From Promethearchaeota archaeon (lineage in GTDB: Archaea; Asgardarchaeota; Thorarchaeia; Thorarchaeales; Thorarchaeaceae), in NCBI GenBank assembly GCA_048937485.1, contig JBHLND010000001.1, positions 1 to 57,059 of the forward strand: a stretch of 57,059 bases of DNA, in the 5' to 3' direction. The notes beneath the pieces are model-generated. The model saw only the letters and a list, made by a program, of their open reading frames with translations. It did no database searches and was not told the origin of the DNA. Shown here piece after piece: positions 10,963 to 28,941 of this stretch (position 1 is the first letter of the stretch; every line of letters starts with the position of its first letter). The translations under genes and the position numbers were made by a program.

Positions 10963-11071
10963 TGGTGCTCCGGCCGGGATTTGAACCCGGGTCGGGGGAT
11001 CGAGAGTCCCCCATGCTGGGCCGGACTACACTCGGTCATACTGTATCCATACACAATACATCTACCGGAGC
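10963..11071 (-). tRNA. tRNA-Glu (anticodon CUC) with a non-canonical intron near positions 8-10; CCA encoded
   Basis: Minus-strand cloverleaf. Acceptor GCTCCGG/CCGGAGC; D-arm GTGT-AGTCCGGCCCA-GCAT; anticodon arm GGGGA-CTCTCGA-TCCCC; T-arm CCGGG-TTCAAAT-CCCGG; discriminator A plus CCA. About 31 nt are inserted between the acceptor strand and the D-arm. Confidence 0.85.
11032..11062 (-). other. Putative tRNA-Glu intron (about 31 nt; junction ambiguous by +/-2 nt because AG repeats at both ends)
   Basis: The sequence GATGTATTGTGTATGGATACAGTATGACCGA separates GCTCCGGTA from GTGTAGTCC. It contains the hairpin TGTAT/ATACA. Confidence 0.6.
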
Positions 11072-21128: not shown

Positions 21129-22332
21129 CATCGAAAGATCCCCTCTTGAGATTCAACCACTGAGAAAACCTCGTACTCTCTGAGGGATTTCGTTTCACAA
21201 TTTCAATTATCGTATCCTTATGGGTTCGTGTAGCTCTCTGAGAAGAAACATGAGCCGCTCTTGAAAGCTTCGAGAGAAGGTCTGCATCTTTGTCAAGACT
21301 CTTGTTGCCACGCCAGACAAGTAAAGGCCATATTGGTTCCGAATACTCAACTCGCCTATAGGAGCTTTCATTTCTACTCCCTGCAGTTCCCGCTGATAGA
21401 AAATCATAGACATAGGAAAGTAGTTTCCAATTTTGATTTCTCATTATTCTTCCAAGAGAAAGATCTGCCAGTGAAAGCGACTCAAATCCAGCTTCTAATT
21501 CCAAGGGAGTAATCAGATGAAGGTGAATATTCTCCTCAAGCCAGAGGAGCAGTTCTCTATAGTCTGTATCTAATTCCGAAATAATGCGCCTAGCAGCTGC
21601 TTGATCCGTTGTCATGAACAGTCTGCGAAACACTTCCTTGATTCCCCTGCGTGAATCTCTCACAGGAAGAGAATCAAAATCTGATAGCGCCATTCCTTCC
21701 ACAAATGTTTCCAAGTCTGCTATTGCAGCTCGCAAATCACCGCCAGCCTGTTCTGCAATCTCTTCCAAAGTATCCTGCTGCAAGGAGGCATCATGTTTCT
21801 TTGCTATCTTCTGAAGTAGTGTTATCACATCAATAGTGTCAATTGCTTCAAAAGTAAATACTTGACATATCTTCAGCAGATCTTTCAGTCTTGGACTGCT
21901 AGGATCATTTGCAGTCATCACTATCGGATGTACTGTCTGTTCAATGATTTTTAGTATCGCACCCACTCCACCCCTATCACTAGTTCCAGAGAGTCCGTCT
22001 ACTTCATCTAAGAGTATCAGCCGCAACCGTCCATCCAATGTTTGCTGAGTGGCTGCTCTCCAGACAAGCGTTTCCACTGTTCCCTTGTTTCGTTTATCAC
22101 TCGAATTAAATTCCACAAGTTCCAAGTCGTAGTCATTGGACAATGCAAAAACCGAAGCGGTTTTGCCAACCCCAGATGACCCAATCAATAGAGCTGCATT
22201 TCTGGTTGGCTTTCCATCTATCCAACTTTGAATCCATTTCTTAATCTCACTGATTGATAATGCATTACCAACAATATCTACCAAACTTCTGGGTCTGTGT
22301 TGTTCTGGCCAGGGAAGATTACTACTAGTCAT
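21109..22332 (-). CDS. rfcL: Replication factor C large subunit
   Basis: WPEQHRPRSL, Walker A GSSGVGKT and Walker B LLDEVD. It overlaps the rfcS stop codon by 4 nt. Confidence 0.9.
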   Translation of the reverse strand: MTSSNLPWPEQHRPRSLVDIVGNALSISEIKKWIQSWIDGKPTRNAALLIGSSGVGKTASVFALSNDYDLELVEFNSSDKRNKGTVETLVWRAATQQTLDGRLRLILLDEVDGLSGTSDRGGVGAILKIIEQTVHPIVMTANDPSSPRLKDLLKICQVFTFEAIDTIDVITLLQKIAKKHDASLQQDTLEEIAEQAGGDLRAAIADLETFVEGMALSDFDSLPVRDSRRGIKEVFRRLFMTTDQAAARRIISELDTDYRELLLWLEENIHLHLITPLELEAGFESLSLADLSLGRIMRNQNWKLLSYVYDFLSAGTAGSRNESSYRRVEYSEPIWPLLVWRGNKSLDKDADLLSKLSRAAHVSSQRATRTHKDTIIEIVKRNPSESTRFSQWLNLKRGSFDARENHR

Positions 22333-23426: not shown

Positions 23427-24029
23427 TCACGAAACAGGCTGGGCAAGGACGCTTGCCCGCATGGCATCTTGAAACAATACTTGGAAGGCTTCCATGATAT
23501 TGTGTCCTTCACGAGCAATACTTCTAAACACATGAACTGAAGAAGGAAGCCTGAGCCGTGCCCGAACTTCTTCTTCTTGGATTGCTCCAGGTAAATCTTG
23601 CTTGTTTAGACATACTACAATCGGAAGAGGTCTATCCTCTTCAGCTACCATTGCCATAAGCTCATTCCAGCTGGCAAGATTTTCATCAAGCAAATGCTCC
23701 TGAGAATCAACCATGAAGACAACGCCATCGGCACCAACCAAAACCACTTCTCGTGTACTTCTGTAGAAGTCTTGTCCTGTCGCAGACCAAACATGGGCAT
23801 TGATTGTCCAGCTGTCTCCAAGGGCAAATGGAATTGTACCAAAATCGCAGAACATTGTTCTGCCCACCGTATTTTCGATGGAAGTAAGGTTGTCTGCGTA
23901 GTCAAGGCTAGAGAAGAGCCAGCGAATTGCAGTGGTCTTCCCACTCATAGCAGGACCAAAGAACACAATCTTCAGACCAATGGTTCGATTTCCGTAGTCG
24001 ATAATCATTACCTCTTCCTCCCAGTTCAT
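23427..24029 (-). CDS. Small GTPase, Arf/Rag/MglA-like
   Basis: G1 GPAMSGKTT, G3 VWSATGQD (Asp replaced by Ser) and G4 NKQD. ATG 24029 overlaps the upstream stop codon as ATGA; the ORF also opens at GTG 24038. Confidence 0.8.
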   Translation of the reverse strand: MNWEEEVMIIDYGNRTIGLKIVFFGPAMSGKTTAIRWLFSSLDYADNLTSIENTVGRTMFCDFGTIPFALGDSWTINAHVWSATGQDFYRSTREVVLVGADGVVFMVDSQEHLLDENLASWNELMAMVAEEDRPLPIVVCLNKQDLPGAIQEEEVRARLRLPSSVHVFRSIAREGHNIMEAFQVLFQDAMRASVLAQPVS

Positions 24030-24946
24030 GTTCCCCACATGCTATCCACCCATGCACCTAGTCCTGACAATGCACCAGATTTCACGCAATCGGAGAAATC
24101 TTCATGCCACTCAGCATGAATGAAATGAATCAAATCAGGTAGCTCTCCACTATCCCATCCTATTGCTTCATAGAGATTCCTTTCCGTTAATGCAGTGGAG
24201 GCTCCAAGTTCGCGAGCCAGCCGGATTCTTGACAATAATGTGACTGCTCTCCGAGCAGCATGAACATAATTACTTATTTCCTCATCAAAGACATCTTGTG
24301 TCAATTTCTCAGATTCATCATCAAGCTTCAATACAGCATTCACAACATGGCTGGAAACTTCAAGACCGCGAAGCGATTTCCGTAGAAGTCGCCGAATTCT
24401 TTCTAGAGATTGTCTCTTCCTAGTCAATATTTTGCTTACAATCTTCTTTTCAACTTCTAGACTGCTGTTGAAGGGTTCCATAAGAGAGAAGCTCATGGAA
24501 GACGGAGAACTCACCTGTAGGATCCCACAATTTCCTGATTTTTGCAGAATCCTGGTTACTACATTTTGAAGCAAACCCTCGTCTACTTGCACACCCAGTA
24601 CAGTTGCTCCAAGAGGAATTGCTAAAATCCATCCTGTGAATCGTGTAATTCGATCCAATGCAAGACGTAAATTGGAAGAAAGTCCACAGACAATTGTTCT
24701 GCTGACCTCATAGTCATGTTTCTCTTCTTCCCAGACTGCCAGTATCTCATTCTCAGACGTAAAATCGCGCCAAAAAACGAGCTTGTGTCTATGTGGTGCG
24801 AGCATTGTAAGACTTTCAGTGATGTCATCTACAAGTTCTCCATCACTTCCAGCAACAAGAATCGGCATTCTACTCATTACAGCGTTCAATAAGAGGGGAA
24901 AATCATCTCCAATCAGTTCAATCATACGCATAATAGAATATGTCAT
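24026..24946 (-). CDS. Uncharacterized 306-aa protein, middle gene of the roadblock-GTPase operon
   Basis: Long ORF joined to both neighbours by ATGA overlaps. I can assign no canonical motif. Confidence 0.7.
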   Translation of the reverse strand: MTYSIMRMIELIGDDFPLLLNAVMSRMPILVAGSDGELVDDITESLTMLAPHRHKLVFWRDFTSENEILAVWEEEKHDYEVSRTIVCGLSSNLRLALDRITRFTGWILAIPLGATVLGVQVDEGLLQNVVTRILQKSGNCGILQVSSPSSMSFSLMEPFNSSLEVEKKIVSKILTRKRQSLERIRRLLRKSLRGLEVSSHVVNAVLKLDDESEKLTQDVFDEEISNYVHAARRAVTLLSRIRLARELGASTALTERNLYEAIGWDSGELPDLIHFIHAEWHEDFSDCVKSGALSGLGAWVDSMWGT

Positions 24947-25890
24947 GGTTCTCGCCTCGCTAGCATTAAACCGCCCTCTGATCCACCAGCAAGAAGCAAT
25001 TCCTTTAGGTCATCAGGAACTGCAGGTTTCATTGCCTGAGAAGCATGTAAGACTCGTCTTATTTCCTCAATATAGTGTTTCAGCAGCAGTCGCATTAGTC
25101 CTAGCTTCTGACTACCTCGATCAACCCAGAGGCTAAACACTCCATTGGGCACAGCATAAATGAAATGACGAGTAGACCCTGTTTCACATAGAACGGTCTG
25201 TAGGGAACTATTTCGTAATGTTCTGACCACACGCTCAGAAGCATCATGAAGAGCAAAAGACATTGCAGCAAGTCTGTCATTAGTGAAACCATCCAAGGAT
25301 ACTCGCACGCCTCCGCTAAGTGACAGAAAGACAGAATCAACTTTCGGGATGCTATCATGGACTTGTCTCAGTAATGCTCTGAGGGTTAAAGCCTGTGAGC
25401 GATCAAGCGACATAATCGATCTAGAAGTGCTATACTTTGTATCCTGACCTTCCGCAACCGAGAAGCCACTTAGCACACGCTGCGTTTCGTCGTTGCTATA
25501 GGAACGAAGTGGAGGCAATCGTCCATCAATATGTTGTCGTAGTAGAAACGAAACGCGTGATAGACTATCCTTCATCTCTATGAACAAAGCAGCCAAGTTT
25601 ACCCGCGGTGCTGTGGTCACAGTAAGAAAGTAGTCAGTATCATTGGGCAAGGAGGCAAGGAATACCTTTGATGTTTCAGATTCCATCAACAGGTAATTGA
25701 ACTCGCCGTGCACCAACCTAGCAACCCCATAGATTGCACATGTTGAAGATGCTACGGCGAATACCTCTTCCTTGCTAAACCATACCCCTGCACTGGCTAC
25801 GGGGAGACCGTCCTTCTGGATAAGCACTACATTCTCCACGCCATTGATCATCTTGATACTCTGCAGCGTTTCAGTCAGCTCGTCGGTCAA
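24943..25890 (-). CDS. Tandem Roadblock/LC7 (MglB-like) domain protein
   Basis: The N-terminal half, INGVENVVLIQKDGLPVASAG...VFLASL, is typical Roadblock. A second similar half lies at about aa 170-290 (VDSVFLSLSGGVRVSLDG...). TTG start. Confidence 0.7.
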   Translation of the reverse strand: MTDELTETLQSIKMINGVENVVLIQKDGLPVASAGVWFSKEEVFAVASSTCAIYGVARLVHGEFNYLLMESETSKVFLASLPNDTDYFLTVTTAPRVNLAALFIEMKDSLSRVSFLLRQHIDGRLPPLRSYSNDETQRVLSGFSVAEGQDTKYSTSRSIMSLDRSQALTLRALLRQVHDSIPKVDSVFLSLSGGVRVSLDGFTNDRLAAMSFALHDASERVVRTLRNSSLQTVLCETGSTRHFIYAVPNGVFSLWVDRGSQKLGLMRLLLKHYIEEIRRVLHASQAMKPAVPDDLKELLLAGGSEGGLMLARREP

Positions 25891-26005
25891 TCATTCAGCC
25901 CCGGACCTGGTAGACAGTCCAAAGTAGAATCCCGGACCTGACTATATAACCACCACACAGCCGTTACTCGAAACTTGTTCTCTCTCTATAGGGGAAATCC
26001 AATAG

Positions 26006-27301
26006 TTACATGTGAATTAAAGCAGCATCTGGCACCTCTTGAAATATCTCCCTTGCAGCTCGTCCCACTTTTGTTCGATGTTCATCAAATGTGTAAACAC
26101 GAATCACATCAAGATATACCTTCATCATTTCCGCAATGTTTGAATACTCAGAAAGGTCATGCGGTACTTTTCTCCCGTCAATTATCTCGAAAATCTTTAT
26201 CTCCATTGGATTGAGTTGATGCGGATTGTATGGAACCGAGGGGAGGGTTGGAACATCAACTATCACCTCATCTGATGAAACTCCTGCAACATCTGCAATT
26301 TCTTCTTCTATGCTTTCTCGAACCTTACGTTTAGTGAGTACTTTCGAAACAAATCTATCTTCAGTGTGCAGGACTTTTTCGAAGGCTGATTTGTAGAGTA
26401 CACGCGAATCTAGCATATTGACCATTTTAACGGCCTCCTTCGCATCTTCGGATTCAGTCGGATCAATTCGTCTAATCTGAGAGATTAATGACATATCATC
26501 CAGTACAAGAAACTCTTCGGGTGTTGAGAAACCGGTTAGGTTTAGCACACTATTTGCGGCGTTCATCATCTTCACAAGCATAATCTCAACACTACGGACA
26601 GTCTTGTGATAGTACACATTGAGAAACATCTCATAACGCGCAACAAGAAAAGACTCAAGTGCACCACGTGCTGCTAAGTCGAACTGCAGGACCAAATCTT
26701 TGGACGCTTCCATGCTGTTAATTAGTCGATGGATATCTACGAGACCGTAATTCACTCCGCAATAGAAGGAGTCTCTGATTAGGTAGTCCATCTTATCTGC
26801 ATCTACTTGACCTGCCACTATTGAGCTTACAATAGAATCAGTTTTTCTCTTACGACGTCCGCGAACAAGATTTGCTATCCTGTTCTTTGATACACCGCCA
26901 TCTTCAAGCAAATCACCAAGCTCGCTCTTGCGGATTATCCACTCAGTTACATCCTCATGATTCCATCCTCTTTGCTCAATCAGAGATTCTTCGAACACAT
27001 GACTGAAAGGGCCATGCCCCACATCATGTAGCAATCCTGCAATGCGTACTTCTTGTAAAGTATCGTTCCCAAGACCCAGACTTCCAAGAAGTCGTTTTCC
27101 TACCATCCCTGCTAGATACATCGCACCAATACAGTGGCCAAAACGTGTATGCTCAGCAGTCGGATACACAAAGTGGCCACCCGAGAGTTGCTTTATTCGT
27201 CTTAGTCTTTGGTATGGAACAGAATTGATTACCTTGGCTTCAATTTCAGTCAGTCCAATGAATCCATGGATGGGGTCGTTGATTTCCATATCGAAGTTCA
27301 T
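26006..27301 (-). CDS. HD-domain phosphohydrolase (SAMHD1/dNTPase-like, COG1078 type)
   Basis: RFGHCIGAMYLAG, LLHDVGHGPFSH and DADKMDYLIRDS motifs. Confidence 0.85.
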   Translation of the reverse strand: MNFDMEINDPIHGFIGLTEIEAKVINSVPYQRLRRIKQLSGGHFVYPTAEHTRFGHCIGAMYLAGMVGKRLLGSLGLGNDTLQEVRIAGLLHDVGHGPFSHVFEESLIEQRGWNHEDVTEWIIRKSELGDLLEDGGVSKNRIANLVRGRRKRKTDSIVSSIVAGQVDADKMDYLIRDSFYCGVNYGLVDIHRLINSMEASKDLVLQFDLAARGALESFLVARYEMFLNVYYHKTVRSVEIMLVKMMNAANSVLNLTGFSTPEEFLVLDDMSLISQIRRIDPTESEDAKEAVKMVNMLDSRVLYKSAFEKVLHTEDRFVSKVLTKRKVRESIEEEIADVAGVSSDEVIVDVPTLPSVPYNPHQLNPMEIKIFEIIDGRKVPHDLSEYSNIAEMMKVYLDVIRVYTFDEHRTKVGRAAREIFQEVPDAALIHM

Positions 27302-27321
27302 CCGAGTTCCTCACATCTTCG

Positions 27322-28062
27322 TTAAATCTGGGGATTGAAGGCGCGAATTTCACGAATCAAATCCTCGGATTTTAGTTCTGATAAACAGAGCGGTAAGTGA
27401 ATACTATCTGCAATCTTTACAGCAAGAGGATCCAAATCCATAACCCCTTGTAATATTACTACTGCCGGTTTTACAGCTGCTGAGGTTCCAATCTGACTAG
27501 CTTTAATTGCAACCATTGGAGAGCGACCAGTAGAAACATTCGTTAGAACAGCTGCACGTTGAGTAGTTCCTCCGTATAAACGCAATAGCTGTTGTGGAGT
27601 CATATTTACAATGGCTTTGATGCTATCCAGTGCTGTATATCCATAGATGTCCCTGTCCAGCAGATTGCCATGAGTTAGCACTTTGCAACCAAGGAAGTCT
27701 ATTAGCAAACGTGCAGGAACTGGCAAACCAAATTCACGACTATCGAGAATTGCATCTGATGCAATTTCGGGAGCAATAAGCTTCTCTAGGGCCATAGCAA
27801 CACGACCACCACTTGCCGCATCCATTTCTATGAGCCCTTCGATAAATCTCCTAATAGTTTCGACCCGAGGCGATTTTCTTCTCCCACTTTCATAGTCGCT
27901 TATCACGGAAGGTGAAACCCCAAGGTGCTTTGCCAAGTGTTTTTGAGAAATCTGGAAGCGTTCCCGCCATCGTTTCATGATAGCACCAGGATCATTCTCA
28001 GCGAGGCATATCTCTCCCGCCATTGCTTCTGCAAGTCTGTGGATTGCCTCACTATCATCCAT
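27322..28062 (-). CDS. XRE-type HTH transcriptional regulator with an archaeal C-terminal domain
   Basis: ISQKHLAKHLGVSPSVISDYESGRRKSP helix-turn-helix. Start taken at ATG 28062 (MDDSEAIH). Confidence 0.75.
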   Translation of the reverse strand: MDDSEAIHRLAEAMAGEICLAENDPGAIMKRWRERFQISQKHLAKHLGVSPSVISDYESGRRKSPRVETIRRFIEGLIEMDAASGGRVAMALEKLIAPEIASDAILDSREFGLPVPARLLIDFLGCKVLTHGNLLDRDIYGYTALDSIKAIVNMTPQQLLRLYGGTTQRAAVLTNVSTGRSPMVAIKASQIGTSAAVKPAVVILQGVMDLDPLAVKIADSIHLPLCLSELKSEDLIREIRAFNPQI

Positions 28063-28176
28063 ACATGCTTTTGAGAGCGCGTTGTTGATAAGACTTGTGC
28101 AGCAGCAAACTGAAATAACCAATAACACCGAAGCACTCAAAGAGCAATCTGTTGTGAAAGGACACCGGTTAAGTCA

Positions 28177-28941
28177 ATGTTCTTCACGTTTCTGGTTGGT
28201 ACCGCAGGATCTGGGAAATCGATGCTCACAGCGTCCCTCGAGAAATGGCTTGTCAATGCAGATGTAAGTGTCACAGTTGTCAATCTTGATCCTGGAGTTG
28301 AAGACCCGCCCTACACAAGCGATGTTGACATCAGAGAACATGTTGACTATGGAGAAGTAATGAATAGCTTTGGCCTTGGTCCCAATGGTGCATTGGTTGC
28401 ATCATTAGACATGGCTGTTGGACTTGTAGGCGATTTGAGAGACGAAATTGTGGATACAGGCCGAGACTATGTTCTTGTTGATTGTCCAGGACAAATGGAG
28501 CTTTTCGCTTATCGAAGCTCTGGTCCACTCATGGTTTCAAGCCTCAGTTCTCAAGAGCCTTCATTATCTCTATACCTACTTGACTCGAATATCGCACGAA
28601 CACCTTCAGGCTATCTCTCCTCAATGCTTCTTGGCATGTCCATACACATGCGCTTTGGACTTCCACAACTCAACATATTGAGCAAGCCTGATCTCCTGAC
28701 AGAGGAACAGATTGAGGAGATTGTTTCTTGGTCAACGGATTCTTACTTGCTCGAGGCTGCCCTTGATGAACTATCAGAGGGTCTTATTCGCGAGTATTCC
28801 GGTGCAATACTTAGAATGCTGGATGATATTGGAGGAGAGAGCAGCATAATTCCCGTTTCTGCCAAGCTAATGACTGGAATAGAACCACTATATGGCGAGA
28901 TGCAGAGAGCTTTCCTAGGCGGAGACAATCTGATTGTGTGA
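28177..28941 (+). CDS. GPN-loop GTPase
   Basis: GTAGSGKS, GPNGA and DCPGQMELF motifs. Confidence 0.85.
   Translation: MFFTFLVGTAGSGKSMLTASLEKWLVNADVSVTVVNLDPGVEDPPYTSDVDIREHVDYGEVMNSFGLGPNGALVASLDMAVGLVGDLRDEIVDTGRDYVLVDCPGQMELFAYRSSGPLMVSSLSSQEPSLSLYLLDSNIARTPSGYLSSMLLGMSIHMRFGLPQLNILSKPDLLTEEQIEEIVSWSTDSYLLEAALDELSEGLIREYSGAILRMLDDIGGESSIIPVSAKLMTGIEPLYGEMQRAFLGGDNLIV

Follow-up and report, generated by a model that had tools for sequence, protein, structure and literature searches.

A conserved gene trio encoding a tandem-Roadblock protein, a DENN-like protein and an MglA-type GTPase in a Thorarchaeota-like genome

Introduction

In eukaryotes, regulators built from DENN and longin/Roadblock domains control Rab, Arf and Rag GTPases throughout membrane traffic and nutrient signalling; how they arose is one part of the question of eukaryogenesis. 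Here we analyse three adjacent genes, referred to as g1, g2 and g3, on a complete 57,059-bp contig (JBHLND010000001.1, assembly GCA_048937485.1; the whole contig is called the window below). The contig belongs to a metagenome-assembled genome with the label "Promethearchaeota archaeon", and its closest relatives bear the label Thorarchaeota. They encode a tandem-Roadblock protein, a DENN-like protein and an MglA-family small GTPase, respectively. The locus is likely to be the Asgard-archaeal Roadblock/DENN/small-GTPase operon, a GTPase-switch module in a Thorarchaeota-like genome. An initial annotation, made from the nucleotide sequence without database searches, had proposed a translationally coupled operon of a tandem-Roadblock protein, an unassigned and possibly DENN-like protein, and an Arf/Rag/MglA-like GTPase; we report below how these proposals fared.

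Results

The three genes are co-directional on the minus strand between positions 25890 and 23427, as initially annotated. Their coordinates, together with those of the domains and signals recognised within and around them, are given in Table 1.

Table 1. Features of the trio locus (window positions; aa, amino acids; nt, nucleotides)
Feature	Position	Strand	Description
g1	24943..25890	-	TTG start, 315 aa; tandem-Roadblock protein, MglB/LAMTOR-like intramolecular pseudo-dimer (as modelled); accession MFX1366992.1
g1 N-terminal Roadblock unit (aa 2-120)	25531..25887	-	QxDGxP hairpin motif; Q25, D27, G28 and P30 invariant
g1 inter-unit linker motif PPLRSY (aa 126-131)	25498..25515	-	Short helix directly after
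g1 C-terminal Roadblock unit (aa 164-283)	25042..25401	-	Diverged; GG at 193-194 replaces DG
g1/g2 ATGA stop/start overlap	24943..24946	-	Translational coupling; ATGA also in Thorarchaeota loci L001 and L004
g2	24026..24946	-	306 aa; DENN-like, with core-DENN α/β and helical d-DENN-like domains and without longin/u-DENN
g2 α/β domain (aa 1-155)	24482..24946	-	Repeated β-α units; DRxPIxVxG...PxR; region aligning to folliculin
g2 all-helical C-terminal domain (aa 164-303)	24038..24457	-	d-DENN-like by position
g2/g3 junction	24010..24029	-	ATGA at 24029-24026, then Shine-Dalgarno-like GGGAGG/GAGGT at 24022-24010 before the conserved g3 start
g3	23427..24008	-	MglA-family small GTPase; 193 aa (conserved start) or 200 aa (ATG at 24029)
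Possible archaeal TATA box, TTATATA	25943..25949	-	53-59 nt upstream of the g1 start; proposed from sequence only

The same gene order, tandem-Roadblock (304-333 aa), g2-like (297-308 aa) and MglA-like GTPase (183-200 aa), recurs in Thorarchaeia (loci L001 to L004), Helarchaeia (L005 and L007), Lokiarchaeia (L006), Sigynarchaeia (L008) and Baldrarchaeia (L012), and also on an unplaced contig (L011). Outside Thorarchaeota, all genes flanking the trio differ while the trio order is kept. Pairwise identities of g1, g2 and g3 correlate with one another (r = 0.81 to 0.98), as expected for co-inheritance. Co-inheritance of the trio extends over no fewer than five Asgard classes. Conservation of the neighbourhood, which had been suggested as a check when the locus was first annotated, is thus found in the five classes named above, amid unrelated flanks.

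Two ATGA overlaps had been reported, and both are present in the sequence; only the first is conserved in relatives. Across nine orthologous loci whose gene junctions we compared, the g1/g2 ATGA is kept in both other Thorarchaeota loci (L001 and L004), and other lineages have gaps of 0 to 35 nt. The g2/g3 ATGA is peculiar to the studied contig. In L001 and L004, g2 stops at a TAA with no overlapping ATG, and g3 starts with MIIDYGNR 17 to 19 nt downstream; over all loci compared, the g2-g3 spacing runs from -10 to +77 nt. Candidate g3 starts in the window are a GTG at 24038, an ATG at 24029 and an ATG at 24008 (end at 23427), and the MIIDYGNR start of the relatives corresponds to the ATG at 24008, which stands behind GGGAGG/GAGGT. 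The ATG of the second overlap is probably not the true g3 start. The operon-like packing is real, and its sole conserved coupling device is the g1/g2 start/stop overlap.

The proposal that g1 has two Roadblock/LC7-like halves was borne out by profile, repeat and structural comparisons. The protein matches Pfam Robl_LC7 (PF03259) in two stretches (E = 1.2e-8; 34.9 bits against a cutoff of 23), and profiles of its N-terminal and C-terminal halves align with each other in hhalign over 119 columns (P = 1.8e-5). Members of the g1 cluster carry the Joint Genome Institute (JGI) name [quoted passage not shown]. An AlphaFold2 (AF2) model built from 11 sequences (predicted local distance difference test [pLDDT] 76.8; predicted template modelling score [pTM] 0.74) contains two αββαβββα units, with helices (H) and strands (E) at H2-13 E18-25 E30-37 H40-61 E66-71 E75-81 E84-93 H99-120 in the first and H164-180 E184-191 E196-198 H202-226 E230-236 E240-247 E250-257 H263-283 in the second. 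In Foldseek, E values lay between 4e-6 and 1e-4 for matches of the model to LAMTOR2 (6b9x_B, TMt 0.80), to Asgard Roadblock crystal structures, among them a Thorarchaeota one (7f8m, TMt 0.85), and to MglB (6h5b_B, TMt 0.77), the TM-scores being normalised to the target; at full length, multi-longin proteins such as Mon1/Ccz1 were matched as well. As modelled, g1 joins two Roadblock domains in one chain and corresponds to a fused MglB or LAMTOR2/3 dimer; its pTM suggests a defined mutual arrangement of the two units. The linker between them carries the motif PPLRS(Y/F), whose two prolines (P126 and P127) do not vary among 11 sequences drawn from five Asgard classes.

For g3, the best sequence matches among PDB entries (phmmer) point to MglA. 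The four best are all MglA, with E values from 2e-28 to 1e-26 (including 3t12 at 2e-28 and 6hjh at 8e-27), and the next-best, Rab11/Arf, follow at about 1e-8. Pfam gave generic Arf/Roc/Ras matches, with Gtr1_RagA below cutoff (E = 2.4e-4). The motifs GPAMSGKTT, VWSATGQD and NKQD listed in the initial annotation are present and lie in positions conserved in all nine orthologues over which we scored them: GPAMSGK(T/S), (S/T)xTGQ and NKxD each occur in 9/9. The G3 motif reads WSATGQ in the window and WTATGQ, WSSTGQ, YSTTGQ or FSATGQ in orthologues, its first (S/T)xTGQ residue being Ser in the window and Thr in the Lokiarchaeia and Baldrarchaeia proteins. A GRT motif is likewise invariant (9/9); its Arg adjoins the switch-I (G2) Thr and, in alignment with Thermus and Myxococcus MglA (ERT/DRT), falls on their intrinsic arginine finger. 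Group-1 MglA proteins were defined by an intrinsic arginine and such motifs by Wuichet and Søgaard-Andersen (PMC4316618), and g3 carries these features. It is also encoded with a Roadblock (MglB-type) partner, since g1 stands in the same operon in nine loci.

Traits of the other two families named for this GTPase were absent. An Arf identity was rejected on the G3 motif, which is WSATGQ instead of WDxGGQ, and on the N-terminus: g3 lacks an Arf-type N-terminus, and its MIIDYGNR aligns with the N-terminus of MglA. A Rag identity was rejected on the sub-cutoff Gtr1_RagA match and on the missing Rag-type C-terminal Roadblock domain, for which 193-200 aa leaves no room. A C-terminal lipidation box is likewise missing from g3. 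With MglA-specific motifs and hits and no Arf or Rag traits, the "Arf/Rag/MglA-like" label narrows to MglA. Judged by these motifs, g3 is an MglA-type molecular switch with its own predicted catalytic Gln and a predicted intrinsic Arg beside the switch-I Thr.

The middle gene had been described as having no assignable motif, and no Pfam or NCBIfam family is reached at threshold. Searches of PDB sequences gave no match with g2 itself and only spurious ferritin matches with a 32-sequence g2 profile. The g2 family is small and confined to Asgard archaea, with named members from the same five classes as the trio. In a library of 1.8 billion proteins it comprises 68 clusters at 50% identity, and the relatives of g2 form 227 clusters at 90% identity, nearly all from Thorarchaeota and 76-99% identical. 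Three of the weakest of the 68 clusters, examined as possible domain fusions, were fn3, PKD and SBP repeat proteins and were discarded as false positives. Among the 120 listed of the 227 Thorarchaeota-dominated clusters, almost all proteins are exactly 306 aa long and 76-99% identical, a uniformity that suggests strong constraint on the full protein, its helical domain included. In the 32-sequence alignment R26, P28 and R53 are invariant, within the signature LLxxLLDRxPIxVxG...LxPxR.

The AF2 model of g2 is confident (pLDDT 92.4; pTM 0.87). Four β-α units (E29-33/H36-47, E54-58/H65-77, E84-88/H90-99 and E106-111/H123-137) lie in the α/β domain and are followed by the helices H164-192, H199-205, H209-246, H255-262, H269-280 and H294-303. 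The protein begins directly with a core-DENN-like helix, and its 306 aa hold the α/β and helical domains only. A fold search on such a model had been proposed in the initial annotation; DENN proteins were its best full-length matches. Against the PDB, these highest-probability full-length matches (269-326 columns) had Foldseek probabilities of 0.75-0.96, query TM-scores (TMq) of 0.30-0.41 and E values of 0.02-0.07. They include DENND10 (8p0v_M), DENND1A (6ekk), DENND1B (3tw8) and a C9orf72/SMCR8 chain (7mge_C); these four were assigned by chain length and by what the PDB entries contain. A further match, at a probability of 0.96 and a TMq of 0.41, was 8dhb_J, which belongs to the active FLCN complex and whose protein we could not verify.

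Profile comparisons agree with this picture. Three different members of the g2 family have sub-threshold Pfam matches, two to Folliculin_C (E = 4.8e-4 and 0.015) and one to DENN (E = 0.093), and all three fall on the same N-terminal helix-strand-helix; the best scores in the family are 20.2 bits for Folliculin_C (PF16692; cutoff 27) and 13.1 for DENN (PF02141; cutoff 23.4). The segment singled out as DENN-like in the initial annotation is residues 14-59. We also aligned the g2 profile to a folliculin (FLCN) profile made from the C-terminal folliculin sequence, checked against the PDB, and 21 homologues (22 sequences in all). Residues 3-137 of g2 aligned with the FLCN DENN domain (347-494) at a score of 35.6, P = 2.4e-4 and a probability of 44%. 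In contrast, reversed or column-shuffled controls (n = 12) scored 10-17 (P = 0.13-0.85), a replication factor C (RFC) AAA+ profile scored 17.1 (P = 0.18) and the g3 GTPase profile 15.0 (P = 0.25). The comparison is informative only with the 22-sequence alignment; against a single FLCN sequence it was not (P = 0.65). Residues 4-48 of g2 also match Pfam Njmu-R1 (the C17orf75 family; profile positions 167-211) weakly, at E = 0.047. This match covers the same helix-strand-helix as the Folliculin_C and DENN matches of the family, and Njmu-R1 may contain a DENN-like core.

The core DENN domain is an α/β three-layer sandwich with minimal P-loop NTPase topology and no nucleotide-binding residues, as described by Zhang, Iyer, He and Aravind (PMC3521125). 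Both traits, β-α units and no nucleotide-binding residues, are found in g2, judged from the AF2 model and the 32-sequence alignment; no conserved GK(S/T), Walker A or Walker B residue occurs anywhere in that alignment. The tripartite chain of longin (u-DENN), core DENN and d-DENN (PMC3521125) is not present in g2. The initial suggestion of a DENN-like protein thus gains from the full-length fold matches and from the FLCN alignment relative to its controls. The DENN assignment of g2 is supported by convergent but individually sub-threshold sequence and model evidence. In our view g2 most likely consists of core DENN and d-DENN and lacks a longin domain.

The window neighbours of the trio are housekeeping genes: an HD-domain protein, a helix-turn-helix (HTH) protein, a GPN-loop GTPase, the small and large RFC subunits, TruA and Cdc6. 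The genes for the GPN-loop GTPase, which has a Pfam ATP_bind_1 match in syntenic loci, and for the HTH and HD-domain proteins lie just upstream of the trio, at 28177-28941 (plus strand) and 26006-28140 (minus strand); their synteny with the trio holds inside Thorarchaeota but is lost in the remaining Asgard classes. Immediately downstream of the trio, open reading frames (ORFs) for the RFC small subunit (23342-22329) and large subunit (22332-21109, both minus strand) share a 4-nt overlap (22329-22332). Because these ORFs overlap too, start/stop overlaps appear to be a genome-wide habit and not peculiar to the GTPase module. PADLOC defence-system models gave no match for g1, g2 or g3.

Elsewhere in the window, a tRNA-like gene lies at 10974-11070 on the minus strand (Rfam tRNA, 32.1 bits against a gathering score of 29; model positions 9-63). 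ARAGORN found no tRNA there. The gene ends in encoded ...GGAGCACCA, and a matching CTCCGG stands about 40 nt upstream of the hit. The matching pair suggests that a non-canonical intron interrupts an archaeal tRNA near its D-arm.

Discussion

By analogy with the bacterial MglA-MglB pair, the two Roadblock units of g1 would bind one g3 molecule across its switch regions, as the MglB dimer binds MglA, and would stimulate GTP hydrolysis by positioning the Arg and Gln that g3 itself supplies. The g2 protein would dock on g1, the two together rebuilding in trans the longin/Roadblock-plus-DENN arrangement of FLCN-FNIP, C9orf72-SMCR8 and DENND1. In this position g2 would tune the nucleotide state of g3, perhaps by promoting exchange, perhaps by scaffolding or gating GTPase-activating protein (GAP) activity. 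The very tight coupling of the g1 and g2 genes favours a stoichiometric g1-g2 complex.

Several points weigh against reading the locus as a Roadblock/DENN/GTPase switch. The g1-g2 and g1-g3 contacts are inferred purely by analogy, and no biochemical study of any trio member was found in the literature searched. For g2, no Foldseek match against the PDB reaches E < 0.001 and TM-scores lie at 0.30-0.41; every DENN or Folliculin_C Pfam match in the family is below its gathering score; the FLCN alignment has a probability of only 44%; and 8dhb_J is a chain of unverified identity. In BFVD, which is without DENN proteins, g2 found only weak P-loop ATPase matches, so fold alone is not decisive. Distant family members also occur without the trio: L010 is a lone copy, and in L009 the gene upstream of the g2-family member is a g2-like paralogue, not a Roadblock gene, with no adjacent GTPase. 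The two adjacent paralogues of L009 (3052-3966 and 4001-4936 in GCA_054681365.1, a distant Asgard metagenome-assembled genome) recall the FLCN-FNIP and C9orf72-SMCR8 heterodimers.

The drift of g2 towards ATPases bears on an explanation foreshadowed in the initial annotation as a P-loop that has lost GK(S/T): that g2 is a degenerate P-loop/AAA+-type pseudo-ATPase, α/β with a helical lid, serving as an adaptor or remodelling subunit with no specific kinship to DENN. Foldseek lists clamp-loader/AAA+ and VirB11/CpaF ATPases for g2, all of its BFVD matches are P-loop ATPases, and the strand-loop-helix ILVAGSDGELVDD sits at the place expected for Walker A. Yet the AAA+ alignments have root-mean-square deviations near 20 Å (probability 0.1-0.6; TMq 0.16-0.27), the VirB11/CpaF matches cover only about 200 columns, the α/β domain alone, and neither Walker A GxxxxGK(S/T) nor Walker B hhhhD/E is conserved in any of the 32 g2 sequences. 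Mixed DENN and P-loop fold matches are in any case expected, because the core DENN itself has P-loop-like topology (PMC3521125). The topology half of the earlier alternative therefore survives as a property shared with DENN, and it makes no true rival. The RFC AAA+ and g3 GTPase profiles did no better than P = 0.18 and 0.25, far from the value for FLCN DENN. The sequence-profile evidence tips the balance for g2 towards DENN, and we consider the pseudo-ATPase explanation unlikely.

A somewhat stronger contender, although still an improbable one, leaves regulation to g1 alone as an MglB-like GAP and makes g2 a downstream effector that binds GTP-bound g3, comparable to RomR/RomX. MglB dimers do suffice as a GAP for MglA, RomRX of Myxococcus is reclassified as an MglA effector in a recent study (PMC13408092), and the L009 and L010 members of the g2 family have no GTPase beside them. 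The tightest and most conserved linkage in the operon is, however, that between g1 and g2 (ATGA in Thorarchaeota, 0-35 nt elsewhere), which fits a g1-g2 complex better than an effector of g3, and in eukaryotes it is jointly with longin/Roadblock platforms that DENN modules influence the nucleotide cycle (PMC3521125, PMC12290439). About as doubtful as the pseudo-ATPase is the proposition that the module is a direct functional equivalent of FLCN/Ragulator/Rag nutrient signalling, with the role of guanine nucleotide exchange factor (GEF) or GAP for Rag- or Rab-like GTPases encoded elsewhere. Roadblock and DENN components are present, the best sequence link of g2 is to Folliculin_C, and an FLCN-like role was proposed by Liu et al. 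(10.1101/2020.10.19.343400); but the co-encoded GTPase is MglA-type and not Rag, on the evidence given above, and the locus offers no TOR pathway or lysosome context, its neighbours being replication and RNA housekeeping genes. That the trio are neighbours by conserved synteny only, with no joint function, is very improbable. The wider neighbourhood (HTH, HD, GPN-loop GTPase and RFC) is syntenic within Thorarchaeota too, but outside them every flanking gene differs while trio order and tight spacing persist; MglA and Roadblock proteins are, moreover, an established functional pair.

The trio lets one ask whether the DENN-Roadblock partnership predates eukaryotes. With about 820 residues in total and two proteins modelled confidently, it is a tractable minimal system in which the role of DENN together with a Roadblock platform, be it GEF, GAP co-factor or effector, could be determined. 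We tentatively suggest, as a possibility that we hold to be somewhat short of even, that the operon preserves an ancestral split state of the eukaryotic longin-DENN regulators: an MglA-MglB switch, its MglA resembling group 1 with an arginine finger of its own and its MglB being a fused Roadblock pseudo-dimer, that recruited a stand-alone core-DENN/d-DENN protein, from which later fusion of platform and DENN and a change of client gave FLCN-FNIP, C9orf72-SMCR8 and DENND-type modules. Were this so, DENN-DENN heterodimers would have an archaeal precedent in the tandem DENN-like paralogues of L009. What makes this evolutionary hypothesis testable is the pairing of a client of MglA type, with its intrinsic Arg, and a DENN protein dependent on a separate double-Roadblock partner.

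Compared with the bacterial MglA-MglB systems of Myxococcus and Thermus, the trio has the same kind of GTPase, MglA-type with (T/S)xxGQ, an intrinsic Arg and a catalytic Gln, adjoining a Roadblock regulator gene, and the same two Roadblock units per GTPase. Unlike in bacterial MglB, a single chain carries both Asgard units, which have diverged from one another. A DENN-like gene sits between the Roadblock and GTPase genes, and there are no RomR/RomX-type partners.

With FLCN-FNIP, C9orf72-SMCR8 and the DENND1-type Rab GEFs, g2 shares the predicted succession of an α/β core DENN and a helical d-DENN, and the module would share a longin/Roadblock platform acting on a small GTPase. The sequence link from g2 to eukaryotic DENN proteins is weak but specific, to Folliculin_C, and lies below family thresholds. 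Several differences set the trio apart from the eukaryotic longin-DENN systems: a longin (u-DENN) is missing from g2, a separate Roadblock protein forms the platform, and an MglA-type client takes the place of Rag, Arf or Rab. In g2, no catalytic arginine corresponding to FLCN Arg164 was identified. The Ragulator-Rag system (LAMTOR2/3 and 4/5) offers a similar Roadblock heterodimer-like platform, and LAMTOR2 is among the best fold matches of g1; unlike there, the trio has no LAMTOR1-like wrapping subunit and no Roadblock domain on its GTPase.

The closest known system is in Asgard archaea themselves. Liu et al. (bioRxiv 10.1101/2020.10.19.343400; Nature 2021) describe, from genome comparisons, a predicted Roadblock/small-GTPase/DENN operon "conserved in most Asgard archaea", whose third protein is "a protein containing the DENN domain" and whose GTPase does not belong to the Rag family, and they propose an FLCN-like exchange-factor role. 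In later work, DENN domains are counted among the eukaryotic-signature proteins of Asgard archaea, and MglA-like GTPases and Roadblock structures are noted there too. The studied trio matches the operon of Liu et al. in content, gene number and distribution, and from this match we infer that it is the same operon and that the finding was already known; the initial annotation, which had envisaged a new regulator or effector, is superseded in that respect. The value of the present analysis is that it confirms and sharpens a published prediction, and not that it makes a discovery. Their "LAMTOR1-like Roadblock / Rab-like GTPase / DENN" operon has the same three kinds of component in most Asgard lineages. 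Liu et al. call the GTPase "Rab-like", whereas in our comparison it falls into the MglA family and carries an intrinsic arginine; the tandem nature of the Roadblock protein is not mentioned in the text of theirs that we consulted, and the split-module reading goes beyond their published description. Relative to that account, two points are refined here: the GTPase is assigned to the MglA type, and the DENN protein lacks its own longin domain and stands beside a separate double-Roadblock partner.

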